A stretch of 53,315 nucleotides of DNA from the IMG/VR virus record IMGVR_UViG_3300030519_000023, positions 1 through 53,315 of that record. One strand, written 5' to 3'. Positions 1-44,377 of this stretch are shown one piece after another. The position numbers and the translations under genes are program-made. This DNA comes from a virus. Its lineage: Duplodnaviria > Caudoviricetes. How positions within the stretch are numbered: the first letter of the stretch is position 1; the number at the start of each line of letters is the position of its first letter. The notes beneath the pieces were generated by a model. The model searched no databases, had not been told where the DNA came from, and saw nothing but the letters and a program-made list of their open reading frames with translations.

Positions 1-34
1 CAATAGCCGAGGATCAGCTGGGGCGTCATCTAAA

Positions 35-397
35 TCAAACCACGGGGGCGGCCGGGGCCGCGGCGGAAGCGGCGGTCTTGGCAGCCACAGCAGCTTCAAC
101 GGCAGCTTCGAACTTCTGGGCTTCGGCCAAGGCCTTGGCAGCTTCGGCATCCGCCTTGGCTTTGTCGGCTTCGAAGTCAGCCTTCACCCGGGTGGAGACC
201 TTGGCCAGGAAGGACTCAACCCCATCGCCCAGAACCTCCGCGGCTGCCTTGATCTTCTTGGCGTCCGCTTCGGCGATGGCCGCCCCCTTCGCGGCATCGG
301 CCTTGAGGTTGGACCAGTAGTGGCCCAGGAACAGCGCCGCCAGGGCGACGAGAGCCCAGATGATGTGGATCAGGTTGGAACTGATGATTTCAGGCAT
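35..397 (-). CDS. Membrane-anchored Ala/Lys-rich coiled-coil protein (lysis cassette 1)
   Basis: ATG at 397 with GAGGA RBS; N-terminal hydrophobic helix IIWALVALAALFLG followed by an Ala/Lys/Glu-rich helix. Confidence 0.7.
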   Translation of the reverse strand: MPEIISSNLIHIIWALVALAALFLGHYWSNLKADAAKGAAIAEADAKKIKAAAEVLGDGVESFLAKVSTRVKADFEADKAKADAEAAKALAEAQKFEAAVEAAVAAKTAASAAAPAAPVV

Positions 398-407
398 GAT
401 GGTTTCC

Positions 408-1079
408 TCAGAAGGTGATGGCGGCGCCAACAAGCGCCAGGGTTTGGGATTTGCCCCCGGCCATTGCCGGCAGGCCCTGCTGGATCAGCTCGCCCACCAC
501 CCGCACCCGGGCGATGTCCTGCTCCACGATGACGCCCACGGCCGACTGGCCTGGGGCATAGAGCAGCCCGGCGGCCCGCCGGTATGTGGGATGGATGGCC
601 TGGCGCAGCTCGCCCACCGCGGCGTCATCCTGGACGAAGGCCTGCCGGTGATCCTGGTCGGCCAGGGTGAGCTGCAGGTTCTGGGCCTTCAGGTCGGTGA
701 TGTCCTTGGCTTGGGCGGCGATCAGGGCATCCTTCGCCAGATCCAGCTCAGGAGGAACCGACGCAGGCTCAGGGTCGGGCATTCCAGGCAGGGGATCGGG
801 ACCAGGGGGGCGAGGAGCGGCCGCCCGCAGCCGCGCCACTTGAGCCTGCAGGCGGGAAACGTTTTGATCGTCGGTGGCGATGGCCGGGGCGATTTCCTGG
901 GCGGCTGCGGCATGCTGATCCCCCTGTTTGGCGGCGGCCTGGGACGCCCCCTGGTCCACGTTGGCCTGCTGGATGTGCGCTTGGTCCCGTTTGCCCTGGC
1001 TGTGGTCCCGGTACATGAAGATGCCGGCCAGCACCAGGGCGAGGCCGGCGGCGCCGATGAGGTAGCCCTTGCCGATCAC
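408..1079 (-). CDS. Putative spanin-like protein (N-terminal TM, coiled coil, C-terminal beta-strands ending in Phe)
   Basis: TM YLIGAAGLALVLAGIFMY, Gln/Ala coiled coil, Pro-rich linker, C-terminus ...TLALVGAAITF; lies downstream of endolysin and holin. Confidence 0.55.
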   Translation of the reverse strand: MIGKGYLIGAAGLALVLAGIFMYRDHSQGKRDQAHIQQANVDQGASQAAAKQGDQHAAAAQEIAPAIATDDQNVSRLQAQVARLRAAAPRPPGPDPLPGMPDPEPASVPPELDLAKDALIAAQAKDITDLKAQNLQLTLADQDHRQAFVQDDAAVGELRQAIHPTYRRAAGLLYAPGQSAVGVIVEQDIARVRVVGELIQQGLPAMAGGKSQTLALVGAAITF

Positions 1080-1279
1080 TGGGGCGCCTTCTCGGTCAGG
1101 AGGACCTGCTTGGTGCTCAGGGCGTGGATCTGGTTCTTCAGACCGTTGCCGGGCATCACCAGGGTGGTCTCCGCCTCGAGGCAGCAGAAATTCTCATCTC
1201 CAGAGATGGATTTGACCTCCAGTTCCAAGGTGACGATGTCACCGGCCTGGATGAGGGTGCCGTTTTTGTCATGGCTCAT
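1076..1279 (-). CDS. Small hypothetical phage protein (DKNG..I..GD.V beta-rich motif)
   Basis: Coupled by ATGA overlaps to both neighbours. Confidence 0.65.
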   Translation of the reverse strand: MSHDKNGTLIQAGDIVTLELEVKSISGDENFCCLEAETTLVMPGNGLKNQIHALSTKQVLLTEKAPQ

Positions 1280-1602
1280 TGCTGATCCCCTTGAGGAAGT
1301 TGGTCATCCCGCTTGAAGTGGGCCGCAACGGTCCCACCCACAAGCAACGTCGCCAGAGACACCAGCACCACGCCGACGCCCTGTTTGATGTCATGGTCAT
1401 TGCCCTTGAGGATCTGGTACGCAGCCGCCCCGCAAAGCATCAGGAATCCCACCATCACCGTCTGGGTCCCGCGAACCAGCGCCCAGCGCTTCGGATCCTG
1501 CGGTCGGTCCTGCCGGATCAGATCCTCGAACCTGCCAGTCCGCGCCTGGGAGGTCATAGCCATAGGGGTTGCAGATGGCGCAGTCGCACATTCAAGCGGC
1601 AT
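1276..1602 (-). CDS. Putative holin (2 TM helices)
   Basis: ATG at 1602 overlaps the endolysin end by 11 nt; hydrophobic segments VMVGFLMLCGAAAY and VGVVLVSLATLLVGGTVAA; charged C-terminal tail. Confidence 0.65.
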   Translation of the reverse strand: MPLECATAPSATPMAMTSQARTGRFEDLIRQDRPQDPKRWALVRGTQTVMVGFLMLCGAAAYQILKGNDHDIKQGVGVVLVSLATLLVGGTVAAHFKRDDQLPQGDQQ

Positions 1603-2086
1603 TCGGCACCGCCCTGGCGCGCACCAGCCAGCCGGCCAGAAACTCCTCATCCTCTGGGTGTGCGGCCTCGATCTCGTTGTAGCGCGCCACCGAGGCGTCG
1701 CAGATTTTCTGGATGAGGCAATCAGGGTCCTGGGCATTGACGGCCGCCTCTGTAGCAGGGCCGTACGCGCCATCGGCGTCTACACCCAGGATGTGCTGGA
1801 CCATGCGGACCTCGGTTCCCCCACCGAAGTTGACGCACAGATCCATGATTTTTGAGGCAACGGCCTGGCTCTGGATCCCATCAAATCGCCAGAACTCGGC
1901 TCGGTAGATCCGCTCCACGTCTGCGTCCGAGATGGCCCGTAGCGCGTCCTCGGTCATGATCCCGTAGTGCTGGGCCACCGCCAGGGTAATGCCATGCATG
2001 GTTGGGCCGCCTCGATCGTTGCGACGGTTGGACCAGCCTCCCTCGTGAGGGAGCAGGAACTGCAGCGCGGGTTCCAGTTGGGCCAC
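1592..2086 (-). CDS. Endolysin, glycoside hydrolase family 108 (copy 1)
   Basis: HEGGWSN..DRGGPT..GIT catalytic motif; C-terminal GWLVRA peptidoglycan-binding motif. Confidence 0.92.
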   Translation of the reverse strand: MAQLEPALQFLLPHEGGWSNRRNDRGGPTMHGITLAVAQHYGIMTEDALRAISDADVERIYRAEFWRFDGIQSQAVASKIMDLCVNFGGGTEVRMVQHILGVDADGAYGPATEAAVNAQDPDCLIQKICDASVARYNEIEAAHPEDEEFLAGWLVRARAVPNAA

Positions 2087-2130
2087 GGATAGCCTCCGGT
2101 CCCAGAATGCGGGGAGGAGGTCGGCCGGGT

Positions 2131-2149
2131 GTCGTCATGGGATGACGAC
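2131..2149. promoter_or_regulatory. Perfect inverted repeat upstream of lysis cassette 1 (possible operator)
   Basis: GTCGTCAT-GGG-ATGACGAC between a terminator and the endolysin RBS. Confidence 0.35.
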
Positions 2150-2159
2150 GGAAAGGGCA

Positions 2160-2185
2160 TAAAAAGGCCCCCGGTGAAGGGGGCC
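2160..2185 (-). terminator. Rho-independent terminator closing the small-gene array
   Basis: Minus strand: GGCCCCC-TTCACC-GGGGGCC followed by TTTTTA. Confidence 0.8.
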
Positions 2186-2200
2186 GATCCGAGAACAGGA

Positions 2201-2437
2201 CTACTTGCGGTTGCGGAGATGGGTGCAGATCGGGCACTGGCACGGCGTCCAGGTGGCGCAGTAATCGGGCGGATCCTGGTGCAGCTTCTGCACTTCCAGT
2301 GCGGCATACTCCAGTTCCTCCAGACTCGCGACCCGAACGCGAAGGGCATCCAGCCCGCAGTCGCATTCCCGGTCCAGGTAGTGATTACAGAAGGCGTGAT
2401 GCACCGGCTCCATTGTAATTTCATGTTCGGTCGCCAT
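2201..2437 (-). CDS. Small Cys/His-rich hypothetical protein (cassette 8)
   Basis: AGGAG RBS and ATG at 2437; H...C...CDCG and CQCPIC motifs. Confidence 0.7.
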   Translation of the reverse strand: MATEHEITMEPVHHAFCNHYLDRECDCGLDALRVRVASLEELEYAALEVQKLHQDPPDYCATWTPCQCPICTHLRNRK

Positions 2438-2466
2438 GTTGGCTCCTGGGTTCGTGGGGTTGGACA

Positions 2467-2571
2467 TCAGCCTTTCGGCTTAGGGTAGGTGGGTGCGGAG
2501 CCCACCGTTTTCGGTGGGCTCCCTGGATTCAGGACTTTCTTGCCGGTGTGAACGGGATGGGGTTGCTTCAA
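2467..2571 (-). CDS. Tiny 34-aa ORF or structured-RNA cassette (cassette 7)
   Basis: AAGGAGGAG RBS and TTG at 2571; TGA abuts the next TGTCCA; contains an 11-bp perfect hairpin at 2497-2522. Confidence 0.4.
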   Translation of the reverse strand: MKQPHPVHTGKKVLNPGSPPKTVGSAPTYPKPKG

Positions 2572-2590
2572 GGCTCCTCCTTTTGGACAG

Positions 2591-2749
2591 TTACGGTTTC
2601 GTGGGGTCTTCGGGACGAGTGGAGCAGAACGAGCATTTCGGGTCGCTGCACTTCGGCGTCCTCCAGCCGCAATCCGGGCACCACCAGGAATCCCAGCGGT
2701 CGAAATACTGCTGGTTGTTGTGCTTGCCGGGGCAATTCAGCATCGTCAT
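2591..2749 (-). CDS. Small Zn-finger protein (cassette 6)
   Basis: GGAG RBS and ATG at 2749; CPDC...CSDPKCSFC..RP. Confidence 0.7.
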   Translation of the reverse strand: MTMLNCPGKHNNQQYFDRWDSWWCPDCGWRTPKCSDPKCSFCSTRPEDPTKP

Positions 2750-2763
2750 GCTCCTGGACAAGA

Positions 2764-3609
2764 TCATTCGTTGACGGCCTTCGGAATCCATGACCCCTCC
2801 GGCATTTCGTCTGGATCGGTTTCGAGGAAGCAGGAACAGGTGATCCCCGGCTGGCGGTAGCCGCCCTTGAACAGGCGGGCCGTGTCTGCGTGGCCGGCCT
2901 TGATGGCTCCATCCTCGATCTGCTCCGCGATGGCGTAGAGGTCGGGGTGGACGGCACGGAGGGCATCCCACTCCTTCTCCCGCATGTTCGGGCAACAGAA
3001 GCAGGAGGACTTACCCACCTCCACCTTCCACCGCCGGTTGATGATGTGGCACTCCTCACGGTTCATGTGCCAGGCCACCAGGGGATACCATGGCATTTCT
3101 GTGGTTAGGTCAACCTCGGGGCTGGAGCAGTAGCGATGTGCCGCTGCCTCAACCCGAGCGCGTTCCCCAGCGTCGTAGCCGATGGCCACGGCGGACCGGG
3201 GGAACCCATGTTCTTTGCGCCACTTTTGCATGGGCTGGATCTTCCACTTCGAGGTGCAGCCGGCCAGATTGTAGGCTTTGCTGGGAAGGTAGCCTGTGCG
3301 CAGGGCATTCTCATGGATGGGCTCGAAGGTGCCATCCTGCCGGATCCACCTGACCACCTCGAAGGGCCACCCCGCCTTGGCCGCCCAAGCGGCGAACTGC
3401 TCAACGGATCGGTAGGTCTCGGGAGTCTCGCTCCCGGTGTCCGCGAACAGGGTCCAGTCCGGGCGAAGGCCCCGCTCGAAGCAGCCCAGAGCCATAGCCC
3501 AGGAATTCGCCCCGGCACCGATGTTCATCCCCCAGGTATGCAGGGGTGGTAGGGGCGAGAAGATCGGCAGGGGCTCGATCTCGTCCAGGTTGAAAAGGGA
3601 ATCGCTCAA
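2764..3609 (-). CDS. PAPS-reductase-like (PP-loop) family protein (cassette 5)
   Basis: GAGANS (PP-loop variant), FADTGSE, CTSKWKIQP, IGYDAGE, KSSCFCCP; TTG start at 3609 after GAGG. Confidence 0.8.
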   Translation of the reverse strand: MSDSLFNLDEIEPLPIFSPLPPLHTWGMNIGAGANSWAMALGCFERGLRPDWTLFADTGSETPETYRSVEQFAAWAAKAGWPFEVVRWIRQDGTFEPIHENALRTGYLPSKAYNLAGCTSKWKIQPMQKWRKEHGFPRSAVAIGYDAGERARVEAAAHRYCSSPEVDLTTEMPWYPLVAWHMNREECHIINRRWKVEVGKSSCFCCPNMREKEWDALRAVHPDLYAIAEQIEDGAIKAGHADTARLFKGGYRQPGITCSCFLETDPDEMPEGSWIPKAVNE

Positions 3610-3646
3610 GGGTGCCTCGGAAGGTTCACGGGTTTGGACAGGTGCG

Positions 3647-3985
3647 CTAGGTGCGCGGGGTGATGGAGAGGTCGATCCCAGACCGGCCCTCGTTGGGCGG
3701 GGCCTGGAGCAGCGGGAAGAACCACGCAAGGCGGCCGTGAGGCATGGCCTGGGGTGTGTAGGGGAACTCCGTCTGGTGGTTGAGCCACTTGACGCGCTTC
3801 CACATGGCCAGGGCCAGGACTTCAGGCGCCACAGCCTCATCCGTCCAGGGGATCGCCACCACATCCATGTCGTTGGCGAGGGAGCCGTGGATCGCCAGGG
3901 CATATCCGTTCTCTCGGGCCACCTCACACAGGCCAGCGTAAAGACCGGCGTAGGCGGGGGCGATGTTTGCGGTTTTCATCGTCAT
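3647..3985 (-). CDS. Small phage protein with a Pol-beta-type nucleotidyltransferase-like motif (cassette 4)
   Basis: GYALAIHGSLANDMDVVAIPW = hGS-x-DxD signature. Confidence 0.6.
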   Translation of the reverse strand: MTMKTANIAPAYAGLYAGLCEVARENGYALAIHGSLANDMDVVAIPWTDEAVAPEVLALAMWKRVKWLNHQTEFPYTPQAMPHGRLAWFFPLLQAPPNEGRSGIDLSITPRT

Positions 3986-3997
3986 GCTCCTGGACAG

Positions 3998-4153
3998 TTA
4001 CGGGTGGCTGGGGGTCAGGACGATGAACCGGGGCCGGGCGAACCGCCGTAGCCCTCGGTAATCGCCTGGGGTTGGGGTGATGGCAAAGCCGTAGCCCCGA
4101 ACGCGAAGCCAGCAGCACCATCGGCAGAAATGGATTGCGGTTTGATGATTCAC
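3998..4153 (-). CDS. Small hypothetical protein, 51 aa (cassette 3; below the ORF-track cutoff)
   Basis: GGAGG RBS and GTG at 4153; MNHQTAIHFCRWCCWLRVRG...TPSHP; the stop is followed by C-TGTCCA. Confidence 0.55.
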   Translation of the reverse strand: MNHQTAIHFCRWCCWLRVRGYGFAITPTPGDYRGLRRFARPRFIVLTPSHP

Positions 4154-4177
4154 GATGCCTCCCGCATCTGGACAAGA

Positions 4178-4312
4178 TCAGGGCTTGTCGGGTTTGTCGT
4201 AGTGGACGTTGACGGAATTACAGTGGGGGCATTTATCTTCGGGGTCTTTTGCCCAGGTCCACCACTTGAACCCGCAAGTCCAGCACTTCATGGGTTGTTG
4301 GGGAGAGAACAT
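4178..4312 (-). CDS. Small Zn-ribbon protein (cassette 2)
   Basis: CWTCG...CPHCNS; ATG at 4312 after TGTCCAGGAG. Confidence 0.65.
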   Translation of the reverse strand: MFSPQQPMKCWTCGFKWWTWAKDPEDKCPHCNSVNVHYDKPDKP

Positions 4313-4332
4313 GCGGATCTCCTGGACAGCCT

Positions 4333-4557
4333 CTACGGCTGAGGGTTTTCCTTCTGCCACTTCTCCCAGGCGGCGATGATGCGCGGGTTCTGGTGCCAGA
4401 GGTCGATGTCGTCGTTGGTGGTTTCGTTGGGATAGAAACTGGGACCGAAGTAGCGGTGATATTCCATCCAGATCCCGCGCCCCAGGTGGACTCGCCTGGG
4501 TGCCATGCAGATGACCCCAACGCGCTTACCGTGCTCTATGAGTGGGATGCAAGGCAT
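4333..4557 (-). CDS. Small hypothetical protein (cassette 1)
   Basis: GGAGG RBS directly after TGTCCA; MEYHRYFGPSF motif. Confidence 0.7.
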   Translation of the reverse strand: MPCIPLIEHGKRVGVICMAPRRVHLGRGIWMEYHRYFGPSFYPNETTNDDIDLWHQNPRIIAAWEKWQKENPQP

Positions 4558-4664
4558 TGATGCCTCCTGGACAGATTCGGCCCTCGTTGAAGCCGGTGCG
4601 GGCCGGGCCGAAACCCGCGCCGGGGCTACATCGTTGGTTCCTAATCCCGGAATAGGATCGGAAC

Positions 4665-5000
4665 CTAAGCCGCCGATTGGGCCGAGGCTTCGGCCAGCCG
4701 CTTTTGCCGGGCAACCTTGAGGGCGTAGCGGTCATCATCCGCCTCAAGACACATCCCACATCTCGTTTTGCCCTTCACGGCGTTGTTCTTCCCGCACTCC
4801 AGGCAGATGCCCAACTTCTTCCATATCACCCGCATCCTGGCGATGTATTTATTGTCATACAGGGCCTTTTTGGCCTTACAGGCTGGGCATCGGACGCTCC
4901 CCTTATGGGGTTTCCCACATGCGATGCACTGGCCGGCAGCTTTCCGCCGCTCTCTCATCCGGCGGTGTGCCGCCCGGTCGGTGGTTAAGGTCCGCGTCAT
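4665..5000 (-). CDS. Basic protein with duplicated CxxCG...RCxxC Zn fingers
   Basis: CIACGK..RCPAC and CLECGK..RCGMC. Confidence 0.75.
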   Translation of the reverse strand: MTRTLTTDRAAHRRMRERRKAAGQCIACGKPHKGSVRCPACKAKKALYDNKYIARMRVIWKKLGICLECGKNNAVKGKTRCGMCLEADDDRYALKVARQKRLAEASAQSAA

Positions 5001-5253
5001 GCCGTCTTCCGCTTCGGGGCCGTCGCTAGGGCCGGGGCCGGAGGGGTCGATACCTTCTCGGCAAACGTCCGGGCCTGGTCCCTGGATCCGAAAGGGCCAT
5101 GGATGGGGCCAGGTTCTTCCCGTCCATTTCCGACATGAGGGTCAGCCAGTGGCCATGCCGGGTCTCCCAGCAATGAGCCACGGCCGACCGCCCAGCCATG
5201 AGGTGGTGTCCGATGCTGCCGACGACGGGAACCCAAGATAAGTTACTGGCCAT
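4997..5253 (-). pseudogene. Small gene with an apparent 1-nt frameshift near 5105
   Basis: Start at 5253 (AAGGAGG RBS) is in one frame; the C-terminus HGPFGSRDQARTFAE, ending in an ATGA overlap at 4997, is in another. Confidence 0.4.
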
Positions 5254-5419
5254 GACGGGCCTCCTTCTGGACTTGATGCTGAAACTGGTCGGCCTTGTAG
5301 TTCTCCCAGACCTGGGGGAGGAGACAGAAACAGAGGACGAGGAGGCAAAGGCCGACGACCCACCACCCGAGTTCCCGGATGTCTTCCTCGGTCAGGGCGG
5401 GCTCGGCCTCGAAGCTCAT
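5243..5419 (-). CDS. Small single-TM protein
   Basis: WWVVGLCLLVLCFCLL; ATGA-coupled to the upstream gene. Confidence 0.65.
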   Translation of the reverse strand: MSFEAEPALTEEDIRELGWWVVGLCLLVLCFCLLPQVWENYKADQFQHQVQKEARHGQ

Positions 5420-5571
5420 TTCCACCCCTTGGCGACCACGTCGTCATGGATGGCTTGCCGTTTGGCCCAGTCGTCCACATGAGCCAGGAACGAGATGGCC
5501 TCCAGCTCGGGGCTCGTCACCCGGGGCGTCCTGGACCGACGTTGAAACAGGTTTTGGATGAAAGCGATCAT
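5416..5571 (-). CDS. Small hypothetical protein
   Basis: GAGG RBS and ATG at 5571; coupled to the downstream gene. Confidence 0.55.
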   Translation of the reverse strand: MIAFIQNLFQRRSRTPRVTSPELEAISFLAHVDDWAKRQAIHDDVVAKGWK

Positions 5572-5589
5572 GCCGACCTCCGAAGGAAG

Positions 5590-5609
5590 CGGGCCCCCGA
5601 AGGGGCCCG
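5590..5609 (-). terminator. GC hairpin with C(UUCG)G loop after DUF932 (weak terminator or processing site)
   Basis: GGGCCCC-TTCG-GGGGCCC on the minus strand; poor U tract. Confidence 0.4.
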
Positions 5610-5618
5610 GGATTGCGC

Positions 5619-6680
5619 CTACATGCCCCTGGAGACCAGGGAAGTCCATTCGGAGCCCTGGAGTGTCATCACCGAGCCGCCCATGTCCTGAAGCTCAATG
5701 GCGCGGTCGTAGTTCTGATTGCCGTTGGCGACCTGGGTGAGGCTATTCGCCAGTCCCCATCTCGTGTGGTCGCGCTCCGCCAGAAAGCTGTAGAGGACCG
5801 ACTTCTTCTCGGCGTCCCGGAGCTGGAATCGGGTAGCCACTTCTTCGACCACCAGTCCAGGATCGCCAGGAACCTTGTCGTTGGCCTTCTCCCGAATCCC
5901 GTCCAGGATCTTCTTGAACCCGTCCTCGCTGGTCAGGGTATTGAGGTGGTCCCGCATTTCGAGCCAGAAGGCTTGATCCATGGCCTTCTTGGTCTCGTCC
6001 TTGAGAACCGTGAAGTCGTCATTGTCGGCCAGGAGTCGGCCGCCCAGATGAGCCCGGGACTTGCCATACTCGAATCCGGTCATGCCGTTGGTGCAGCGAA
6101 GCCGCTTGAGCCAGGGCAGGATTTCGATCTTACCCATGCCGATCTCGGAATTCTTGATCAGGAAGCCACCCTGCACTTCATCGCCGACGCGGATCTCGCC
6201 GGTCAGGGCCGGGGTGACCACCTGGACATAGAGGCGGGATTCGGTCACGGTGGCCGATTCGACCTGGAATTCAGGGCTCCCCAGGATGACCGGGAGCAGG
6301 TATTCAGCCACCTCCTCGTTCTCGATCATCTTGTAGCCGTTACTCAGGACGGCGCGGGCGTTGTCCCCGAGGGTGCGAATCAGGCGGCGTTCCCCCTTGT
6401 GGTTGTCTAGGAGGCGGTTGACGTTGAGATGGATGAGGTCCGGGGCGTTCTCCCGGAGTTTGGTCATGAACCCCCTGGGAATGCCGAGATAGTCAGAAAG
6501 CTGGTTCCGGGCGTGATCGCTGGTCCTGGTGGCGACCGGGCCGGTGGAGTTCATCCAGGTGAGGTTCTGGTCCTCATCCATGCGGAGGTCGGTCGCCGGG
6601 ATCACGAAGTCCCGCTTGTTCTTGGCATTGTCCAGGATGGTCTGAACCAGGACGGGAATGGAGTCGCCTTTGATGGTCAT
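5619..6680 (-). CDS. DUF932-family protein
   Basis: LIRTLGDNARAVLSNGY..IEN, VGDEVQGGFLIKNSEIG, RLRCTNGM, HTRWGLANSLT motifs. Confidence 0.85.
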   Translation of the reverse strand: MTIKGDSIPVLVQTILDNAKNKRDFVIPATDLRMDEDQNLTWMNSTGPVATRTSDHARNQLSDYLGIPRGFMTKLRENAPDLIHLNVNRLLDNHKGERRLIRTLGDNARAVLSNGYKMIENEEVAEYLLPVILGSPEFQVESATVTESRLYVQVVTPALTGEIRVGDEVQGGFLIKNSEIGMGKIEILPWLKRLRCTNGMTGFEYGKSRAHLGGRLLADNDDFTVLKDETKKAMDQAFWLEMRDHLNTLTSEDGFKKILDGIREKANDKVPGDPGLVVEEVATRFQLRDAEKKSVLYSFLAERDHTRWGLANSLTQVANGNQNYDRAIELQDMGGSVMTLQGSEWTSLVSRGM

Positions 6681-6714
6681 GGGTGCCTTTCAGGCTGGAC
6701 GTTGCAGCGTCCGA

Positions 6715-6963
6715 TTATTGGTTAACGGCCTTGTTGATGAAGGTGTTTACCCGGATCCCCTTGGAGAGCATGGAGATCGCGGCGTTGAGTGATTCGAGCT
6801 GGAGGCCCCGGGGATGGGTCTCGCCTCGTTCCCAGCGACCCGGGGTCGCCGGGGAAACCCGGATGAGCCTTGCGAATGCTGCTTGGCTCAACCGGGCGAG
6901 TTTCCGATACCGCCGGATCTCCGCCGGGGAGGGGATTACCTGGGGGGCGTGATTTCGGTCCAT
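6715..6963 (-). CDS. XRE/Cro-type HTH regulator
   Basis: IRRYRKLARLSQAAFARLIRVSPATPGRWERGETHP. Confidence 0.85.
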   Translation of the reverse strand: MDRNHAPQVIPSPAEIRRYRKLARLSQAAFARLIRVSPATPGRWERGETHPRGLQLESLNAAISMLSKGIRVNTFINKAVNQ

Positions 6964-7226
6964 GGCGAATCCTCGTTTTCTCGGTAAAGGGCCAGCATCA
7001 GGGTCTTTTCGCCCAGGACCACGTTCTGGACTCGGGGATCGGGAGAAGGGGCCGCCGCGACCTCGTAGCGAACCGCCAGGATTTGCGTCACGGCGGGCCG
7101 GTCCTGGTAGCGGATGATCCGTTCCCACAGCTTTTCGAGGTCGGTGGTCTTGGCGTCCCGGATCGTGTCGATGGCATTGCCAGCCTGGATCTGATAGACG
7201 GCTTCGGGGATGGTCGCGGTGGCCAT
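6936..7226 (-). CDS. Hypothetical protein
   Basis: Operonic position and typical codon usage. Confidence 0.65.
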   Translation of the reverse strand: MATATIPEAVYQIQAGNAIDTIRDAKTTDLEKLWERIIRYQDRPAVTQILAVRYEVAAAPSPDPRVQNVVLGEKTLMLALYRENEDSPWTEITPPR

Positions 7227-7230
7227 TGGT

Positions 7231-7662
7231 CTACCCGACCTTGGTCAGGAGGTCTTGAGCCACGGCGCCAGAGAGGCGGGACTTGATGCCAGAGACCATG
7301 TTGGTCAGGTAGGCGATCTGCTGGGACAGGAGTTCCAGGGTCACCGGCTCATCCGCCTTGCGGGGATCTGTCACGAGGGCGATGGGCTCCGGGATGGGAT
7401 CGACTTCAATGGGAGCCATGACCTCAAAGCTGTTGCCGTGGCTCCCCGACCCGCGAATGACCCCAACGAGCCCCATTCTTCCGATAGCGTTGGCGATGGA
7501 CGAGACGGTGGCGCGGGGCGTCATGTATTCGTTCATCACTTCCGGGATGGAGGTCTCCAGGTGGACATGGAGCTGGGTCAGGGTGTAGATCCCGGGCGCC
7601 ATCGCCAGGATGGTGTCCGCCACTTTGTTGGCGCGGGCCTTCGAGAAAGGCTTGAGGTTCAT
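7231..7662 (-). CDS. Hypothetical protein, possible winged helix
   Basis: AAGGAG RBS and ATG at 7662; first gene after the promoter. Confidence 0.65.
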   Translation of the reverse strand: MNLKPFSKARANKVADTILAMAPGIYTLTQLHVHLETSIPEVMNEYMTPRATVSSIANAIGRMGLVGVIRGSGSHGNSFEVMAPIEVDPIPEPIALVTDPRKADEPVTLELLSQQIAYLTNMVSGIKSRLSGAVAQDLLTKVG

Positions 7663-7717
7663 GAGATTGCTCCTTGCAGGGAGGGTTGGTTGAGTCGTCT
7701 TGCTGCTTTGATAACCC

Positions 7718-7746
7718 AATATGCGCCCGTGCCTGATACGAGTCAA
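7718..7746 (-). promoter_or_regulatory. Sigma70-like early promoter
   Basis: TTGACT-N17-CATATT with an AT-rich UP-like tract upstream. Confidence 0.65.
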
Positions 7747-7775
7747 TACCTTTTGATACTTTATTTTCGCATGTG

Positions 7776-8000
7776 CTACTTTTTAGCGCCGGAGGCAATG
7801 CTCTGGGCCTCCCGCGTCCATGCGTCCACGTTCCCATCGTTGAGGCCCTGGTTGCGGATCCAGTCCAATCGGCTTCGGAAATGGTCCGAACCGGATGCGC
7901 GAATTTGACGTAATTTGTCTCGGTCGCGTCTCAAGTCCGCCTCGATCCCTGCTAGGAGAAGACGGGCGTCATCCATGGGGTCCTTCTTTGGCTCTGCCAC
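7776..8000 (-). CDS. Small helical hypothetical protein
   Basis: AGGAG RBS directly after the polyvalent gene. Confidence 0.6.
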   Translation of the reverse strand: MAEPKKDPMDDARLLLAGIEADLRRDRDKLRQIRASGSDHFRSRLDWIRNQGLNDGNVDAWTREAQSIASGAKK

Positions 8001-8008
8001 GTCCGCTC

Positions 8009-11000
8009 CTATGCCGCTGCCGGATTCGCTTGCCCTGCCCTGGCCCGAACTGCCTTCAGGTCCCCGGCCAGCCCGGAGTCATCCTGGAAGCCATTGGGAT
8101 CCTGGAAAATCTCGCCCAGGACGCCCTTGCGCTTGATGCGCTCCATGTTGTTCTTCTCCCATGGGTGATCAGCCTGGAGAGTGATGCTCTCGACGTTGTC
8201 CTTCTGCCCCAGGCGCCAGATGCGGGCCGTCCGCTGGTTGTGGACCATGGCCGTCGACGGGATGTCGTGGTGGATGATGCACTTCCCATGCTGGAGATTC
8301 AGCCCGGTGGCGCCGGCATCGCTCATGACGATCACGTCGGCCTGTCCGCTGTCGAACCGGGCCGCCTTCGCCGCCTTGTCCTTGGAACTGTCCTTGCCGG
8401 TGAGACTGGTGGCTTTGATCCCAGCTTTCTCCATGGCCGCCTGAATCGACGCGACGGCCTCCAGGTTGTGGCTAAAAATGACGACCGGCTTTCCCTCGGC
8501 GATGCGCTCCTTGGCGATGCGAACATGCTCCGCCATCTTGCCGCCCTCGGGATCCAAGTTGATGATCCGGTTCATAGCCGATTCACGCATGGTCCCGACG
8601 GCTTTTCGCACCTTCTCGGCGATGGCCTGGTGGTCGGCCTCGGGCTTCCCGTCGAAGGACTTGGGTGCCAGCATCTTGGCCCATTTCACGGTGTCGGGGG
8701 CCCCGGTGCGGAGTTTCCCGCTGGCCAGCTCCACCTGGTCCACGGCCTGGTGCTGCTTGTCGGTAAGGGCGACCGACGGATTGGACTTGTAGCATTCCTT
8801 CCCTGGGTCGACGCGGCCGTTGAACCAGTACCGGGCCAGTTCCTGAGCCATGGACTTCTTTGCCAGGGGCGCGTCGTTCTTGTATCGCCGCATGAATTCG
8901 TCCTTCGACTCGGGCGGATACTTGTGAGGGTCGATCTTGTTCAGGTTTGACCAGACCTCCGACACGTCGTTTTTGAGGGGGTCGCCCGTGGCCATTACGA
9001 CATGCTCAGAGTTGTAGGAGTGGGCATCCAGCACCTTGCTCCAGGTGGAATCCTCCTTTCCATCCCGGTCCAGGGCGCCGTGGGCCTCGTCCACCATCAT
9101 GGCGTTGAAGTCGATCCCAGCCTTGATGAACGCTTCCTTGACGGATGCAGCGGCGTCCTTGGGGGATGCCGAATGCAGAAATTCCCTGGCACCCTCGGGC
9201 CCGCTGCCCAGGTGGTCGCCCAGGATCTTTAGGGTATCGTCCCGAAGGGTCTGGTGGGTCACGACGACCGCCTGCTGGTCGGGGTCGCGGTAGGCGGCCA
9301 GCCTCTCGTCGTAGCTCTCGCCCGGGGCGGCATGGACATGAAAGCCGCTGGATGGGTCGATGAACCGGATGGCTTCGGCGCCGAACTGGGCCTGGACGAC
9401 CGACGGGACGGCGATGATGCCCTTCTTGAGCTTCCCCTGCTGGTGAAGGGTCGTGAGGCTGCCCAGCATGATCGGGGTCTTGCCGCTGCCGGCGCCATAG
9501 AAAAGCCCCATCCGTTTGAGCTGGGTGATCGCCTTGACGGCCCTCTGCTGCTGGACGTATTTCCCGCTCATGTGGAGCCCGTCCTGGACGTTCACTGACC
9601 CCTTTCGCCCAGCAAAGGGCGCCGACGCGGCCGGCATGAGCCCCCGGATTTGGTTCTCCAGGGCAGTCCCAAGGTGGTAGCGTTCCCCGGGCGCCAGCTC
9701 GGGCTTCTCCCATGCGGCAGCCGGCGCCTCCTCTCTCCCGGGCTCCGGCTCCTCGGTTTCGTTCAAGTTGAATAGGGCCCCGTCCTGGACCTTTGCTAGG
9801 GCCTGGGCTGCCTTCGCCTCCTTGAGCTTGTCTCCGACCTTCCCCGCCCCGAACTGGCCGCCGCCCTTCTTCTGGAGCTTCGCCTGTTGGGACTTGCGAT
9901 CTGCGGCCAGGGCCTCGGCCTCCTTGTCTCCCAAGGTCATCTGGAGGTGCGCCTGGGCCCCGGAAATGTCGGCCGTCGCCATCTGGAGCTTCTGGCCGGT
10001 CAGGTGGTGGTAGTGGTCGTGGAAGGCTTCATTGAGCTGCCCCCGCATCACGTCCTGGATGGCGCCCTGGGCGAACTTGGTCCCACCCATCCGCTGGATG
10101 TAGCTGTCCCAAAGGGTCGGCTTGGTGGCGTCCTCGTGATATTCGGATTCGAGCTGCTGCCGCTTGTTGTTCCACTCCACCCATTTGTCCGACGCGGCTC
10201 CCTCAGCGTCGGCCGCGTCGTCGTCGCTCATGCCGGCGAATAGATTCATGGACTGGACTTCGGCGTTGGTCTTCTCGGGCTCGGGGCCCAGGTTGCCGAT
10301 GGCCTGGTCGAATTTCCACTTCTTGGCGTCGTCGCTGTTCGCCTTGCCGCCGAAGTGTTCCTTGTAGAAGAAGTCCCGGATGGCCGACGCGTGTTCGTGG
10401 GTCAGTTCGCCCTGGGGGATATAGGCGGCGGCCAGCCGGGGATCCTTGGCCAGTGCCCGGTGAAGTGCCTCATGGAAGTTTCCATCGTCCTGCACCCGCT
10501 GGCCCTGGAGGGTCGTTCCTGCCTCATTGGGGTTCGCGGCCATGTAGCCCTGCATCATGGGATCCAAGTCGGCTGCGATCTCGTGGGGGGCCCGGACGCG
10601 GGTCTTGAGCATGGGCTTCCCGTTGATCTCTATGGGCTTCCCGGTCTCCTTGTCCTTTTCCTGAATGGGCTGGCTCTTGGCGTCCTTTTCCACGACCCGC
10701 AGGGGGACCATCTCGTTCATGGCTGCGTCCCAATGAGCCTGAGCTTCCGGGGAGAGGTCCAGCTTGGCCCCGCCATAGACGCTGGCAACGATGTCCTCGG
10801 GTCGTTCCCCGTCGGCCAGCCGTGAGCCCATCCATGCCTGGAGCTTCCCCTTCACCGCCTCAGCGTCGTCTCCGTCCTGGATATCGTGGTGCCGCTGGAA
10901 TTCGGCGGGCTCCATTTCGGGGTTGGAATACCGGTCGGCCAGCCGATTGGCGAACCCAGCCGGGATCCAGTTGTCCTCATCCTGCTGGCCACCCTTGAGA

Positions 11001-13483
11001 GACAAGGCCACCTCCCTCTCGCCCAGGGCCGCGCAATCCACCGGCTTGACCATGGCGTCCATAGCTGCGCCCTGGGCGGTGATGACGGCCTCCCCGTCCT
11101 CGTGGCTGATCTGGTAGCTTCCCTCGGGCATCCCAAGGGCGGCTGCCGTCATGACTGCCTTCTCAGGGGTCATCTTGCCCAGAGGGATCTGGTACTCGTT
11201 CAGAGGGGTGGAGTGGAGGGCGGCGATCAGGGCAGCTCTCGCTTCCAGTCGCCCCAGGGCCCCGCCCAGGACCCGACGCGCCTCTTTCAGGGCCTCCACC
11301 TTATTCTTCTGGATCTCTACAGCGGCCGGGATGTCGTGAGCTACTTCCAGGAGTTCCTGGTCACATTGGGCAGCCTTGGCCCGGAGAGCCTGGGCGTCCT
11401 CGGTCACCTGGGGAAGCAAGGTCTCCTGCTCTTGGAGGTGGTGGTGCTCCAGAGCCTCCAGGACGGCTTGCTGGTCCTCGGGGCTGAAGTTCTGCCGAAG
11501 GGCACGGGCGACGACGTGGGCAGCCCCCTCGGGCCCCAGGCACTCAACAACGTCCCGGTCGATCATTCCCTGGCCCAGGGCCGCCAGGCCGACATCGTGC
11601 AGAAGGTCAAAGGCGCCGGCTCCCCGGCTCTGGTGCATTCCCTCCATTTCGCCGGTCTTGAACGGGTCGATGTCGCTCCCCTCGGGGAATCTCTCGCCCA
11701 CCTCCTCCAGGAATCCCTGGACGTGCTGGGTCAGGAGCTGCTCGTGCAGGGACTGGACCAGGGCTTCGTGTTCCTCGGGGGTGCCGACGGCCATCTGGAA
11801 CCCCGGCTCGAAGGTGATCCCCTTCTTGGCTGCCATCTGCTGTTTGTAGGTCGCCCGGAGTGCCTGGCGGGCCCGCAGGAGGTGGGCCAGGGTCTCATTG
11901 GACTCCAGGGATTCCTTCACGGCGTCACGCATGGCGGCGGCCTTCTGTGCCTGGAGGTCTTTAGTCGCCTTGTGAATCTGGATGTTCGCGGCCTGTTCCT
12001 CCGGGCTCTTGGGGCCCGTAGCCTCCTTGGGCGCCTTGCCTTCGGCAGCTTGAATCTCGTTCACGGCAGCCATCAGCTTTTCGCTGGTCATGCCGGCCTT
12101 CTCTGCCCGCTCGGCCAGCTTCTGGTTGTAGCCGGGCCCGGACTTGCCCTGGGTTTCCGAGAGGATGGCGTCCAGGTCCATAGGGGAATCCCCGCCGACC
12201 AAGTTGATCCCGCTGGCTCCCCGGGCCTCGGCGTCCAAGAGAACCTTCTTCTCTGCCTCGGCGACGATCTTCTTGGCCTCGGCCAGCCGGGCCCGGTGCG
12301 CCTCCTTGGCAACCTTGGGGTCGTCCTCGCCCTTGAACAGATCCTCATGGTCGCCGCCCTGGCCACCTGTGGCGGTTCCCAGGACGTCGTTGATGAACTT
12401 GTCCTCGGCCTGCTTGCGCTCCGCCCGAGCCCCGTCAGAGACCTCCCGCTCCTTGGCGAGGTCATCGGGTGACAGGCTGGCCTTCCGCTTCGCCTCGGCC
12501 TCGCGGCGGCCCTTGGCGTTGGCCCTGGACTCCTCCTTGTATTGTGCCGGGTTCTTCAGGCCATGCAGTCGGAGCCCATTCAGTTTTCCCTGGGCGCCAC
12601 CGATGACGCGGGCAGCGCCGTTGCTACCCTGGATCGGCTGGATGAGGAGAGGGTGGCCCTTGGAACCGGGCCCGTCGGGGTGCGCGGTAATCCAGTGGGC
12701 CCCGGCGGGGATGGGGTCTCCGCCCTTGACGATGGTGCGCCAGCCGTCACGCCGTCGCTGGTCCTCGGCGCAATGACAGCAGTTGAGCCCGTCGCCTTGG
12801 TAGTCCGGTGGCTTCGGGCCACCGCACCGGGCCTTGCAACCATCCGGCCTCGGGAAAATCCAGCCGTGCCCAGAATTAGGCATGTCGGGGTCCCAAAGCT
12901 GTAAGCCCTCTGCTTCGCTCTTGGCGATGGTCCGGGTGGCGTTCTCATCTGCCAGCCAGTCCTTGAAGTCGTCGATGGTGTGGGCGGCGATGGAGTGGAA
13001 GCCGTCCCAGCCCTTGCTGTAGTTGGCGAAGTAGGCAGCCTTGGCCTCCGCCTCGGTGTCCCATCCGATCATGACCTTGTGTTCATCGAATTCGCCAGAG
13101 AGCGGATCCACCTGATTGACGATGAAGACCGACTGGCTCTCCGGGTTGGGCCCGACAAAGCAATCCACCCCGTCCCCGTCTGCCCCGAAGGACCGCTTGC
13201 AAAATCCATAATGGTTGGCCATCTTGACCGACCACTTCGTCCCGCAGGAGTCAACCCCGCTTCGGATACTCCCGACGGGATTCTCAATGGCGATGGGGAT
13301 CCCCTGGACGACGATGTGCCCGCGCCGGCCGCCCTCCCGTGGCTCGGCCTTCCCTGCCTGTCGATCCAGATCTGGGGTGGTCAAGGGCTTGATCTTCAGG
13401 GCGATAGTGGGGGTCCAGCCGACGGGAATCAGCCACCCGGTTTCCCCGGATTCGTTATCGGTAAAGGGGATTCCGGCGTTCAT
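8009..13483 (-). CDS. Large polyvalent protein: InPase-like domain, Cys motif, HWIT module and C-terminal SNF2/SF2 helicase
   Basis: IENPVGSIRSG...HYG...GADGDGVDCFVG...FDEHKVMIG (InPase); helicase motifs GAGSGKT, VDEAH, ATGDP, GLNLQ, QRTARIWRLGQ; ATG at 13483 after GAGG. Confidence 0.88.
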   Translation of the reverse strand: MNAGIPFTDNESGETGWLIPVGWTPTIALKIKPLTTPDLDRQAGKAEPREGGRRGHIVVQGIPIAIENPVGSIRSGVDSCGTKWSVKMANHYGFCKRSFGADGDGVDCFVGPNPESQSVFIVNQVDPLSGEFDEHKVMIGWDTEAEAKAAYFANYSKGWDGFHSIAAHTIDDFKDWLADENATRTIAKSEAEGLQLWDPDMPNSGHGWIFPRPDGCKARCGGPKPPDYQGDGLNCCHCAEDQRRRDGWRTIVKGGDPIPAGAHWITAHPDGPGSKGHPLLIQPIQGSNGAARVIGGAQGKLNGLRLHGLKNPAQYKEESRANAKGRREAEAKRKASLSPDDLAKEREVSDGARAERKQAEDKFINDVLGTATGGQGGDHEDLFKGEDDPKVAKEAHRARLAEAKKIVAEAEKKVLLDAEARGASGINLVGGDSPMDLDAILSETQGKSGPGYNQKLAERAEKAGMTSEKLMAAVNEIQAAEGKAPKEATGPKSPEEQAANIQIHKATKDLQAQKAAAMRDAVKESLESNETLAHLLRARQALRATYKQQMAAKKGITFEPGFQMAVGTPEEHEALVQSLHEQLLTQHVQGFLEEVGERFPEGSDIDPFKTGEMEGMHQSRGAGAFDLLHDVGLAALGQGMIDRDVVECLGPEGAAHVVARALRQNFSPEDQQAVLEALEHHHLQEQETLLPQVTEDAQALRAKAAQCDQELLEVAHDIPAAVEIQKNKVEALKEARRVLGGALGRLEARAALIAALHSTPLNEYQIPLGKMTPEKAVMTAAALGMPEGSYQISHEDGEAVITAQGAAMDAMVKPVDCAALGEREVALSLKGGQQDEDNWIPAGFANRLADRYSNPEMEPAEFQRHHDIQDGDDAEAVKGKLQAWMGSRLADGERPEDIVASVYGGAKLDLSPEAQAHWDAAMNEMVPLRVVEKDAKSQPIQEKDKETGKPIEINGKPMLKTRVRAPHEIAADLDPMMQGYMAANPNEAGTTLQGQRVQDDGNFHEALHRALAKDPRLAAAYIPQGELTHEHASAIRDFFYKEHFGGKANSDDAKKWKFDQAIGNLGPEPEKTNAEVQSMNLFAGMSDDDAADAEGAASDKWVEWNNKRQQLESEYHEDATKPTLWDSYIQRMGGTKFAQGAIQDVMRGQLNEAFHDHYHHLTGQKLQMATADISGAQAHLQMTLGDKEAEALAADRKSQQAKLQKKGGGQFGAGKVGDKLKEAKAAQALAKVQDGALFNLNETEEPEPGREEAPAAAWEKPELAPGERYHLGTALENQIRGLMPAASAPFAGRKGSVNVQDGLHMSGKYVQQQRAVKAITQLKRMGLFYGAGSGKTPIMLGSLTTLHQQGKLKKGIIAVPSVVQAQFGAEAIRFIDPSSGFHVHAAPGESYDERLAAYRDPDQQAVVVTHQTLRDDTLKILGDHLGSGPEGAREFLHSASPKDAAASVKEAFIKAGIDFNAMMVDEAHGALDRDGKEDSTWSKVLDAHSYNSEHVVMATGDPLKNDVSEVWSNLNKIDPHKYPPESKDEFMRRYKNDAPLAKKSMAQELARYWFNGRVDPGKECYKSNPSVALTDKQHQAVDQVELASGKLRTGAPDTVKWAKMLAPKSFDGKPEADHQAIAEKVRKAVGTMRESAMNRIINLDPEGGKMAEHVRIAKERIAEGKPVVIFSHNLEAVASIQAAMEKAGIKATSLTGKDSSKDKAAKAARFDSGQADVIVMSDAGATGLNLQHGKCIIHHDIPSTAMVHNQRTARIWRLGQKDNVESITLQADHPWEKNNMERIKRKGVLGEIFQDPNGFQDDSGLAGDLKAVRARAGQANPAAA

Positions 13484-13612
13484 GGGTGCCTCAAAATTCG
13501 ACTTGCAATCCTGCTTGGACGGGGGCATATTTCTGGAGTGCAACAGGGGGGCGGAATATAGCCGGACCAATCCCCAAGTAGGCCCGTCCGAGGCTACCCC
13601 TTTGGCGGGCCA

Positions 13613-15882: not shown

Positions 15883-15902
15883 GAATGGAATTGGACAGCA
15901 CG

Positions 15903-27249: not shown

Positions 27250-27264
27250 GTCATCTGGCACCTC

Positions 27265-27300
27265 GGCCCGGGTGCCCCCATGGGGTGCCTGGGCCTTTTT
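27265..27300 (+). terminator. Rho-independent terminator after the capsid gene
   Basis: GGCCCGGGTGCCCC-CAT-GGGGTGCCTGGGCC-TTTTT. Confidence 0.7.
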
Positions 27301-27314
27301 GATAGGAGTCCCCT

Positions 27315-27794
27315 GTGTCCGATCCCACCACCGTCACCGTGGCCCATCAGGGCCGCCCCTTCGATCCCCCTGTCATCAATACCAGTGCGGGCCCGGTCAT
27401 CTTCTGTCCCAACCCGGATGGCGGAAACCTCTGGCTTGGCCAGGCGTCTCCCGACCAAGCGGCCGAGCTGCTCAATTTCCCCTTTTTCCTGGAATTCAAA
27501 GGCGCCACGCCGGCCCCCAGTGCGGATTATGCCCCCCTGCCCGACAAGACCTGGACCAAGCCCGGCATCGCCCAGTGGGCCCTGGAATTCCTGGACGTGA
27601 CCCTGGACCAGACCAAGACCAAGGATGCGATGCTGGCCGACCTCAAGACGGCTTCCGATGCCGTGGCCGCCGCCAGCGTGGCCGTCCCCGCTGCCACCCC
27701 GGATCCCACCGCCCCGAATGCTGCTCTGGCTGCAATCCAGGCTGCCGAGGTTGCCCTCCAGGCCGCCGAAGCTGCGAACACCCCCCAGTCCTAA
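27315..27794 (+). CDS. Post-capsid accessory protein with HeH/LEM-like motif
   Basis: WTKPGIAQWALEFLDVTLDQTKTKDAML; AGGAG RBS with GTG start. Confidence 0.6.
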   Translation: MSDPTTVTVAHQGRPFDPPVINTSAGPVIFCPNPDGGNLWLGQASPDQAAELLNFPFFLEFKGATPAPSADYAPLPDKTWTKPGIAQWALEFLDVTLDQTKTKDAMLADLKTASDAVAAASVAVPAATPDPTAPNAALAAIQAAEVALQAAEAANTPQS

Positions 27795-27806
27795 ACCGGA
27801 GCATCC

Positions 27807-44257: not shown

Positions 44258-44377
44258 GCCATCTCCCGATCTCCACATTATCCACAAGGCGACGCGCCCA
44301 GCAATACCAGCGGGGTATCCCGTTGGACGACCGCCTCCCGGGCCGGGCCTTGCTCAAGGCTGGAGGTGGAGGGCCCC

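Follow-up and report, generated by a model that had tools for sequence, protein, structure and literature searches.

A TGTCCA hexamer that looks like an undescribed gene-cassette boundary in small-gene arrays of uncultured phages

Introduction

The small accessory genes of phages (host-takeover genes, anti-defence genes and ORFans) are the fastest-turning part of viral genomes, and how such genes move is known mechanistically for few systems. Here we describe an array of such genes in a member of the Caudoviricetes (Duplodnaviria), IMG/VR virus record IMGVR_UViG_3300030519_000023, in which each of eight small open reading frames (ORFs) is headed by the same hexamer, TGTCCA, hereafter the core. 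The window analysed is this whole record, a linear sequence of 53,315 nucleotides (nt) estimated to be 60% complete. In phages that share almost nothing else, this one invariant hexamer bounds more than 100 accessory genes, and the joints of exchange map to it at single-base resolution. TGTCCA looks like a gene-cassette boundary that has not been described before.

Results

Eight small genes, each headed by the core

The array occupies positions 2201-4573 and is read on the minus strand, where the core stands before each of the eight ORFs (plus-strand TGGACA at 2461, 2584, 2755, 3635, 3991, 4169, 4323 and 4568). Its features, in the direction of transcription, and the module that part of it belongs to are as follows.

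4574..4664, minus strand: non-coding spacer of 91 nt with an imperfect inverted repeat, between a zinc-ribbon gene (4665-5000) and core 1
4568..4573, minus strand: core 1 (TGTCCA), heading g1
4333..4557, minus strand: g1, 74 amino acids (aa), phrog_7990 (a PHROG of unknown function), with a 44%-identical homologue in the array of an unrelated phage, G005
4323..4328, minus strand: core 2, 4 nt past the g1 stop
4178..4312, minus strand: g2, 44 aa, with weak zinc-ribbon matches, every one under the Pfam cut-offs
4169..4174, minus strand: core 3, 3 nt past the g2 stop and followed by a small hairpin with a Shine-Dalgarno (SD) sequence in its loop
3998..4153, minus strand: g3, 51 aa, with a 39%-identical homologue in the array of phage G004
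3991..3996, minus strand: core 4; identity with a second phage, type B (see below), begins at 3997, one base ahead of the core
3647..3985, minus strand: g4, 112 aa, phrog_35913 (a PHROG of unknown function), a small phage protein family with distant relatives in 41 cultured-phage records
3635..3640, minus strand: core 5, 6 nt past the g4 stop
2764..3609, minus strand: g5, 281 aa, PAPS-reductase-like (phrog_424, E 2e-31; Pfam PF01507 match under the cut-off)
2755..2760, minus strand: core 6, 3 nt past the g5 stop, opening the second copy of a 20-mer
2591..2749, minus strand: g6, 52 aa, Cys-rich, without a family match
2584..2589, minus strand: core 7, a polymorphic joint, with other sequence after the core in one public run and two contigs ending exactly at the core
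2467..2571, minus strand: g7, 34 aa, TTG start, the least certain of the eight genes
2461..2466, minus strand: core 8, 0 nt past the g7 stop
2201..2437, minus strand: g8, 78 aa, Cys-rich, the final unit, with no core after its stop
2166..2185, minus strand: intrinsic-terminator-like hairpin and T run that closes the operon, the only gene-strand terminator found
1..3997, no strand assigned: module common with type B (99.97-100% identity), comprising g4-g8, the terminator, a GH108 endolysin gene and downstream genes

The interval 2201-4573 holds eight copies of TGTCCA on the gene strand and none on the opposite strand, against about 0.5 per strand expected from its length, and no copy lies within the eight genes. 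An earlier note on this DNA, made from the letters and a list of ORFs, had described this arrangement and had put the chance expectation at roughly 0.5 copies; our recount bears out both. The same holds for its statements that seven cores lie 0-6 nt past the previous stop (4, 3, 1, 6, 3, 1 and 0 nt for cores 2-8), that four products end in proline (g1, g2, g3 and g6), that a terminator closes the array (a hairpin and T run, 2185-2166 on the minus strand) and that no recombinase is present in the window, in which no Pfam match to a tyrosine or serine recombinase was found. It had also taken the units for promoterless segments that run from ribosome-binding site to stop codon, and on the gene strand inside 2201-4573 neither a sigma-70-like promoter nor an internal terminator was detected. 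Its description of flanks mixed across the core proved accurate as well: CCGTAAC stands ahead of the cores at 2584 and 3991 and TGATCT ahead of those at 2755 and 4169, an exact 20-mer (the core plus GGAGCATGACGATG) occurs at 2755 and 3991, and GGAGGCATC follows the core at 4568 and recurs near 4169.

The distance from core to start codon is 5-25 nt in the window. Because core 1 lies 91 nt past the previous stop (4665) and 10 nt ahead of the ATG of g1, the core belongs to the 5' end of each unit and not to the stop codon, and in our reading of the sequence the first cores of arrays are likewise tied to the gene start. Annotation of the units is thin, no unit besides g1, g2, g4 and g5 having any family match.

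In the whole window, TGTCCA occurs 48 times on both strands, against 24.9 ± 4.7 times in 100 shuffles, none of which reached 48. The other 40 copies read as coding-type contexts with the sole exception of an intergenic copy at 15892. This solitary copy (15892-15897, minus strand) stands between a terminator-like hairpin and a sigma-70-like promoter (TTGACT, 17 nt, TATTAA); it sits upstream of the promoter instead of in a leader, and may be due to chance.

Arrays in other phages

The earlier note had proposed that the motif be counted by its position relative to stop codons. In 19 array segments (34.4 kb), 123 forward and three reverse cores were counted, and 107 of the 123 forward cores lie 0-10 nt past an ORF stop (ORFs of 30 codons or more), in a set that includes one segment, L044, with four forward cores and none at a stop. 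Such proximity to a stop is seen for 14.7% of random positions and for 10 of 83 copies on the reverse strand. Outside the arrays of four large contigs the hexamer is present at about chance frequency, and ORF stops accompany only 7 of its 47 forward and 7 of its 61 reverse copies, a share close to that of random positions. Avoidance of the reverse strand within arrays is not significant (4 observed vs 6-11 expected, rank 58 of 180 permuted hexamers, in a set with 131 forward copies that contains L035 and two non-array stretches of G005).

Forward cores number 21 over a span of 5.3 kb in G004, 16 over 5.0 kb in G006 (a complete genome of 43.5 kb with terminal repeats), 14 in L046, which has no reverse copies, and seven in G005 (51% GC). 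The array-bearing phages have almost no proteins in common and vary in GC content between 51 and 63%. Their cassette genes are hyperdiverse: 172 candidates gave only 17 families with at least two members, and five of these 17 consist of identical pairs, one member from the window and the other from type B. In G006, a DUF5131 (PF07505) protein of 338 aa is encoded by one unit of the 16-core array (26788-27804; L028:6788-7804), and this unit and the PAPS-reductase-like g5 indicate that units are not only tiny ORFans.

The 20-mer was also found in three further viral contigs and 29 metagenome stretches, mostly in arrays, with some chance or coding matches among them; for the scan of metagenome-assembled genomes (MAGs), about one chance match to the 20-mer was estimated from the size of the collection. 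The Opitutaceae matches and L030, L034, L035, L036, L037, L047, L050, L055 and L058 were rejected as arrays, being coding or chance matches instead. A 25-mer across the flank and core 1 occurs in 0 viral contigs. When positions 1900-5000 were compared by blastn with 50,697 phage records, just one weak match of 106 nt was returned, a 65-nt leader gave no match to cultured phages, and a cultured phage carrying the motif was not found. A literature search for an intergenic TGTCCA motif in phages yielded nothing relevant among the papers listed, as judged from titles and the openings of abstracts.

Joints of exchange at the core

A search with g5 returned three IMG/VR contigs. These and two metagenome contigs are fragments of a single other phage, type B. 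Type B is 99.97-100% identical to positions 1-3997 of the window and has no detectable similarity to positions 3998-12000. The earlier note had asked whether homology to related phages breaks exactly at TGTCCA; here it breaks one base before core 4 (3991-3996). The window form of this joint recurs in a contig of a public run (X14 record 13) that spans 2768-4190 with 0 differences, and this run is not marked as a possible source of the window. In run X8, other sequence stands directly past core 7 (2584), and two further contigs end at the same place. The recombinase genes of L068 and L071 match at 90% over 689 nt, and this identity stops at the last base of the core. Three independent near-identical comparisons place joints at a core edge.

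It is barely credible that these joints are produced by chance or by assembly, that is, by a chimera joined at the 20-mer repeat in a coincidental run of motifs. The contigs of the window and of type B do break or branch at repeats, and the 20-mer lies in the window twice; however, none of the 100 shuffles reaches the observed count, arrays recur in contigs of many separate records, the contig over 2768-4190 comes from an independent run, and the 3997 joint has cores to either side.

Six pairs of diverged homologous cassettes with a downstream joint were available (39-87% ORF identity). In five of the six (39-66% nt identity), both members have the exact core past the stop and differ in the next leader and gene, and in the sixth one member has a one-base variant of the core. 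Variant cores read at true joints number four (TATCCA twice, TGTCTA and TGTACA). Comparison of these sequences indicates that the core is under purifying selection.

The core is not the only place of exchange. The whole 20-mer heads several unrelated ORFs, and family 1, small coiled-coil-rich proteins in the arrays of L046, L056, L049, L053 and G006, has an identical C-terminal segment behind unrelated N-termini, which points to intragenic mosaicism within arrays. As leaders are shared among unrelated genes and genes are internally mosaic, exchange is not confined to the core. The earlier note had pictured cassettes inserted or shuffled by crossover at the 6-bp core. The joints at core edges, and the diverged cassettes that keep the core next to differing neighbours, favour that picture; the limitation of exchange to the core has to be given up.

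In several public runs the sequence departs from that of the window at about 43-75. The type B module thus has a second polymorphic boundary here, one without TGTCCA. The window itself stops 28 nt inside the gene that comes next in type B (1-75; L010:5040-5110). Among the assembled contigs of four runs no core-to-core joint is listed, and the three listed joints lie elsewhere, with sides of 21-22 letters; such contigs drop rare forms. In run X10, contig depth is about 1.1 over 4006-4539 (g1-g3) vs 5-9 in the flanks, which at most hints, contig depth being a poor measure, that the type A backbone in that sample mostly carries other units at g1-g3. The window also has two GH108-type endolysin genes, at 1592-2086 (minus strand) and 44366-44872 (plus strand), about 70% identical in protein, and the copy at 1592-2086 may be the imported one because it lies inside the module common with type B.

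Leaders behind the core

The leader families that recur across phages either have a direct GGAG or an SD of GAAAGG type, or fold into hairpins: one that holds the SD in its loop, anti-SD/SD hairpins and a 50-nt double hairpin. The SD-in-loop hairpin heads g3 of the window and two units of G006, and the 50-nt double-hairpin leader is nearly identical in G005 and G006. Where hairpins of -10 kcal/mol or below are predicted (10 array leaders), the first paired base lies 0-3 nt past the core in 8 of 10. At 112 junctions, the only conserved elements near the core are the stop codon (TGA in 75 of the 112, often at distance 3) and the SD, and neither a dyad nor an extended site around the core was found. 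Some whole intergenic spaces measure only 13-20 nt. Across arrays the core lies 4-78 nt from the start codon, which argues against a translation element at fixed distance. No Rfam family was matched at E ≤ 1 in 32 kb of arrays. As to the inheritance of units, the short spacer before the core goes with the upstream gene and the leader goes with the downstream gene.

The core could in principle be a pure expression signal with no role in recombination, for example a processing, stability or translational-control site such as the target of an endoribonuclease or repressor, of host or phage origin, that acts on accessory early genes; joints would coincide with it since selection keeps whole genes and the core is the sole shared intergenic sequence. 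The strict strand specificity and strictly intergenic placement of the core, the purifying selection on it, the anti-SD and SD-in-loop hairpin leaders directly behind it and the existence of core-less breakpoints at gene boundaries in this population would all be accounted for. However, three joints fall in or at the edge of a 6-bp core within spaces of 18-52 nt, for which we estimate a probability of about 0.02 under a uniform model, and the separate inheritance of spacer and leader also goes against such a signal. In addition, the core is missing from conserved genes of the same transcript, as predicted by a mobility-linked site and not by a general expression signal. We regard this explanation as unlikely.

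Recombination genes near the arrays

In type B, the genes upstream of core 4 encode a small terminase-like protein, a GpA-type large terminase and a tyrosine recombinase of 352 aa (L005:3553-4611), the stop codon of which lies 2 nt from the core. The enzyme is Xer-like, its best matches being models of XerA, XerC and XerD, all under their cut-offs, and it falls far below the cut-offs of the integron-integrase models (73.8 vs 265 bits for TIGR02249; 55.1 vs 435 for NF011946). It has about 70 relatives at 52-68% identity, the nearest named one (55%) in the chromosome of Mesoterricola silvestris; for host identity this relative is only a lead, towards Holophagae-like acidobacteria. Type B also has a second integrase-like gene.

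A profile search found nine independent viral contigs with enzymes 57-65% identical, eight of which include downstream sequence. In six of the eight, a core follows the recombinase stop within 2-8 nt, and among the eight loci only the recombinase gene itself is conserved. In the 26.1 kb downstream of the Xer-like genes, ORF stops accompany 34 of the 37 forward cores, which share the strand of the recombinase; upstream there are five forward cores in 22 kb. The clade was not found in the sequenced parts of the window, G004 or G005, and the complete G006, with its 16 cores, has no PF00589 or PF00239 match. A recombinase in the rest of the genome or the host was what the earlier note had suggested looking for: a tyrosine recombinase indeed stands by the same cassettes in type B, and its clade is directly upstream of arrays at other loci, but G006 does without any.

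In three cases the array comes after general-recombination genes on the same strand, in the following order.

L066: helix-turn-helix (HTH) protein (97-582), Sak4-like annealase, endonuclease VII-like gene, Xer-like enzyme, array, second classical integrase
L070: RecE-like exonuclease, phrog_1376 protein, Xer-like enzyme, array
G006: RecE-like exonuclease, phrog_1376 protein, array, without a tyrosine or serine recombinase

With the Pfam models of RecT and Erf, the only match was a sub-threshold one in the window. The Xer-like gene neighbours arrays frequently but not universally.

Directly past the 21-core array of G004 (L022, 5562-6042), 95 aa remain of a tyrosine recombinase, from its catalytic end, and the translation of the sequence that follows resembles, by look, a tRNA T-arm; this stretch looks like a decayed prophage end. 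Ahead of the array of the window, positions 4665-5000 (minus strand) encode a basic double-zinc-ribbon-like protein, and a Cys-rich ORF of similar look, a likeness judged by eye, stands ahead of the Xer-like gene of L067. Farther along the window, at 8009-13570 (minus strand), a protein of 1853 aa shares an N-terminal domain (residues about 80-220) with virion, endolysin and DarB-like PHROG families and has a C-terminal helicase region (phrog_62).

Discussion

Six things call for an explanation: a bare and invariant hexamer, its occurrence in shuffled genes only, selection on it in place, joints at the core, a partial linkage to one recombinase clade, and arrays that are free of recombinases. 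The reading that we favour, with a probability of about 45%, is that TGTCCA is a selected unit-boundary signal that doubles as short homology for cassette shuffling by the phages' own recombination genes, similar to that at the PeSLs of T4-type phages (see below). The region is a hyperplastic array of self-contained translation units, each made up of TGTCCA, a leader with its own SD, a small accessory ORF and a stop codon, and the units would be read off one long transcript ending at the terminator at 2166-2185. The hexamer forms the fixed 5' boundary of every unit and is a sequence-specific signal selected across a broad set of uncultured phages. Within the polycistronic RNA it may mark the boundary of a unit or a site of processing, because the core starts leaders of any length and stabilizing hairpins often begin 0-3 nt past it. 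As the core, often together with a leader family of 15-50 nt, is the only sequence common to non-homologous units, it could serve as the short homology for swaps of units between co-infecting phages. The likely agents are the general recombination genes just upstream of arrays, and the lack of PF00589 and PF00239 matches in the complete, 16-core G006 suggests that a site-specific enzyme is not needed. The sequences themselves show the architecture, its spread over phages, the selection on the core and the joints there; that exchange is homology-driven rather than site-specific is what we infer.

Several points weigh against this reading. Six base pairs are very short for homology-driven exchange. 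That the hexamer is read at the level of RNA is purely what we infer, and predicted RNA accessibility is the same for the core (0.47) as for its flanks (0.47). No protein common to every array-bearing phage, such as a trans-acting reader of the hexamer, was found at blastp E ≤ 0.01, only lysis genes being shared, by three to four of five phages. In two candidate MAGs with the 20-mer, the 10-mer formed by the core and GGAG is mildly enriched (28 vs 10 and 21 vs 13). The conserved genes of the same operons, for the exonuclease, annealase and integrase, have no core. Finally, the Xer-like clade lies directly upstream of an array at all eight of its loci, and 68 loci with distant recombinases (594 kb) include none with an array, taken as at least three junction-type cores.

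The main rival, which we hold to be possible rather than probable, is a recombinase-driven system, integron-like but not an integron, in which the upstream Xer-like enzyme would insert and excise units of core, leader and ORF by crossover in TGTCCA. The core directly past the recombinase stop would be the entry site, and enzyme-free arrays (those of the window and G006, for example) would either depend on an enzyme acting in trans or be inherited, like the clusters of attC sites lacking integron-integrases (CALINs) of bacteria. The loci just mentioned fit this model well, with junction-type cores downstream in 8 of 8 contigs, a core 2-8 nt past the stop in 6 of 8, a 2-nt distance between stop and core 4 in type B, and nothing but the recombinase gene conserved among them. 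All three near-identical joints lie at the core, and the core is confined to shuffled genes, as expected if every unit had entered via the site. L066 and type B, moreover, own a second classical integrase, which leaves the Xer-like enzyme spare for lysogeny. However, conservation is limited to 6 bp, without a dyad or inverted arms for binding, and some intergenic spaces are no longer than 13-20 nt, whereas known tyrosine recombinases need sites of about 30 bp or a folded attC. The missing enzyme in the complete G006, and the absence of the clade from what has been sequenced of the window, G004 and G005, count against the model. So do the exact cores in diverged cassettes of G006, which imply selection in place, and the shared leaders and intragenic mosaics, which imply that other joints exist. 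The adjacency of enzyme and array may also be plain synteny, as G006 and L070 share the order of exonuclease, phrog_1376 and array with or without the enzyme, and the enzyme clade and the motif may both just mark phages of one host group.

If the recombinase model holds, it could take the form of a phage-borne cassette system of a new kind, in which the Xer-like clade captures and reshuffles promoterless genes through a bare 6-bp core without attC-like structure. Unrelated phages of one host community would then draw on a shared pool of small genes, and enzyme-free arrays such as that of the window would be products of the system. We consider this form doubtful; if true, viruses would have an analogue of the integron with a much simpler site. 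Whichever mechanism holds, the boundary signal and shuffling homology that we favour included, the motif is a handle for finding accessory-gene arrays in metagenomes, delimits units without gene calling and offers a concrete target for experiments on gene trading among phages.

Integrons are the first known system to be compared. In integrons, attC is an element of 57-141 bp past the ORF that consists of imperfect inverted repeats with the inverse core RYYYAAC and the core GTTRRRY, and the integrase gene is divergently transcribed, with attI and the Pc promoter. The TGTCCA arrays resemble them in having promoterless single-gene units in one orientation that are reassorted at a core, hyperdiverse ORFan content, a short conserved core exactly at each joint, a tyrosine recombinase beside the first site in one clade, and arrays that lack the enzyme. 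They differ in that TGTCCA lies 5' of each leader and not in an element past the ORF, and in that the array recombinase is co-directional, in the same gene string, directly upstream and abutting the preceding gene; their carrier, moreover, is a phage genome. Within 1251-4260, GTTRRRY was found on the gene strand at none of six joints; elsewhere in this interval there is one gene-strand match inside g5 and one antisense match overlapping the core at 2461. Intergenic spaces of 13-20 nt and only three reverse cores in 34.4 kb leave neither room nor an inverse core for attC hairpins. We therefore reject membership in the integrons, on the grounds of enzyme, attC, GTTRRRY at the joints and orientation. 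The earlier note had seen a resemblance to integrons without the GTTRRRY/attC signature; that signature is indeed missing, and no IntI-type enzyme is present (the type B recombinase reaches 73.8 bits against the 265 required).

In cluster A mycobacteriophages, the repressor of the phage binds stoperators, which are distributed along both arms of the genome. TGTCCA could be an asymmetric repressor operator of this type, placed at every accessory-gene junction and silencing read-through in lysogens. The arrays share with stoperators asymmetric sites in many copies per genome, in a single orientation relative to transcription and in short intergenic spaces by stop codons, and HTH proteins are encoded in or near arrays (family 2; L066 97-582). 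In contrast, stoperators are 13-bp transcription-regulating sites (mentioned in PMC3203893), and TGTCCA has 6 bp. It is confined to accessory arrays rather than spread genome-wide, and G006, whose virion genes are podovirus-like and which gave no integrase match, has it too; nor is a common repressor family found across the phages. A stoperator-like role is very unlikely, and the selected boundary signal that also serves as homology for shuffling remains our preferred reading.

Also comparable are the start-associated sequences (SAS) and extended SAS (ESAS) of cluster K mycobacteriophages, which in the passages of Pope et al. (2011, PMC3203893) that treat them are 13 bp long, include the SD and lie 3-7 bp before the start codon. 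Both SAS and TGTCCA are asymmetric repeats in one orientation, in the non-structural part of the genome, at gene junctions ahead of unrelated gene families. According to the same passages, SAS are not present at meaningful frequency in the host genome, and their reader is proposed to be encoded by host or phage. TGTCCA differs in its length of 6 nt and in its place, which is ahead of the SD, at 4-78 nt from the start codon and close behind the preceding stop. Moreover, SAS are limited there to one phage cluster, whereas TGTCCA arrays occur in phages with almost no shared genes, and the passages on SAS make no mention of recombination joints at them.

The closest parallel in behaviour is provided by the PeSLs, the mobile regulatory cassettes of T4-type phages. 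According to the two papers on them, small genes, most of them ORFans, stand between short conserved regulatory sequences in hyperplastic regions, and the joints of insertions, deletions and replacements between close relatives lie at these repeats and are attributed to homologous recombination (Arbiol et al. 2010, PMC2839356; Comeau et al. 2014, PMC4122927). In the same papers, a strong early promoter of sigma-70-like type and a terminator stem-loop together make up the PeSL, and mini-circles were shown physically (PMC2839356, PMC4122927). In both systems repeats flank small variable ORFs and replacement joints fall at the repeats, so that the behaviour is the same. In contrast to the PeSL composite, the invariant part of the arrays is 6 nt long, the interior of the array has no promoter or terminator consensus, the units are co-transcribed, and hosts and phage types are others. 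What is known already, therefore, is that conserved junction repeats mediate the modular shuffling of phage accessory genes, and TGTCCA would be a new variant of this principle, with a real chance that it belongs instead to a new, recombinase-based cassette system.

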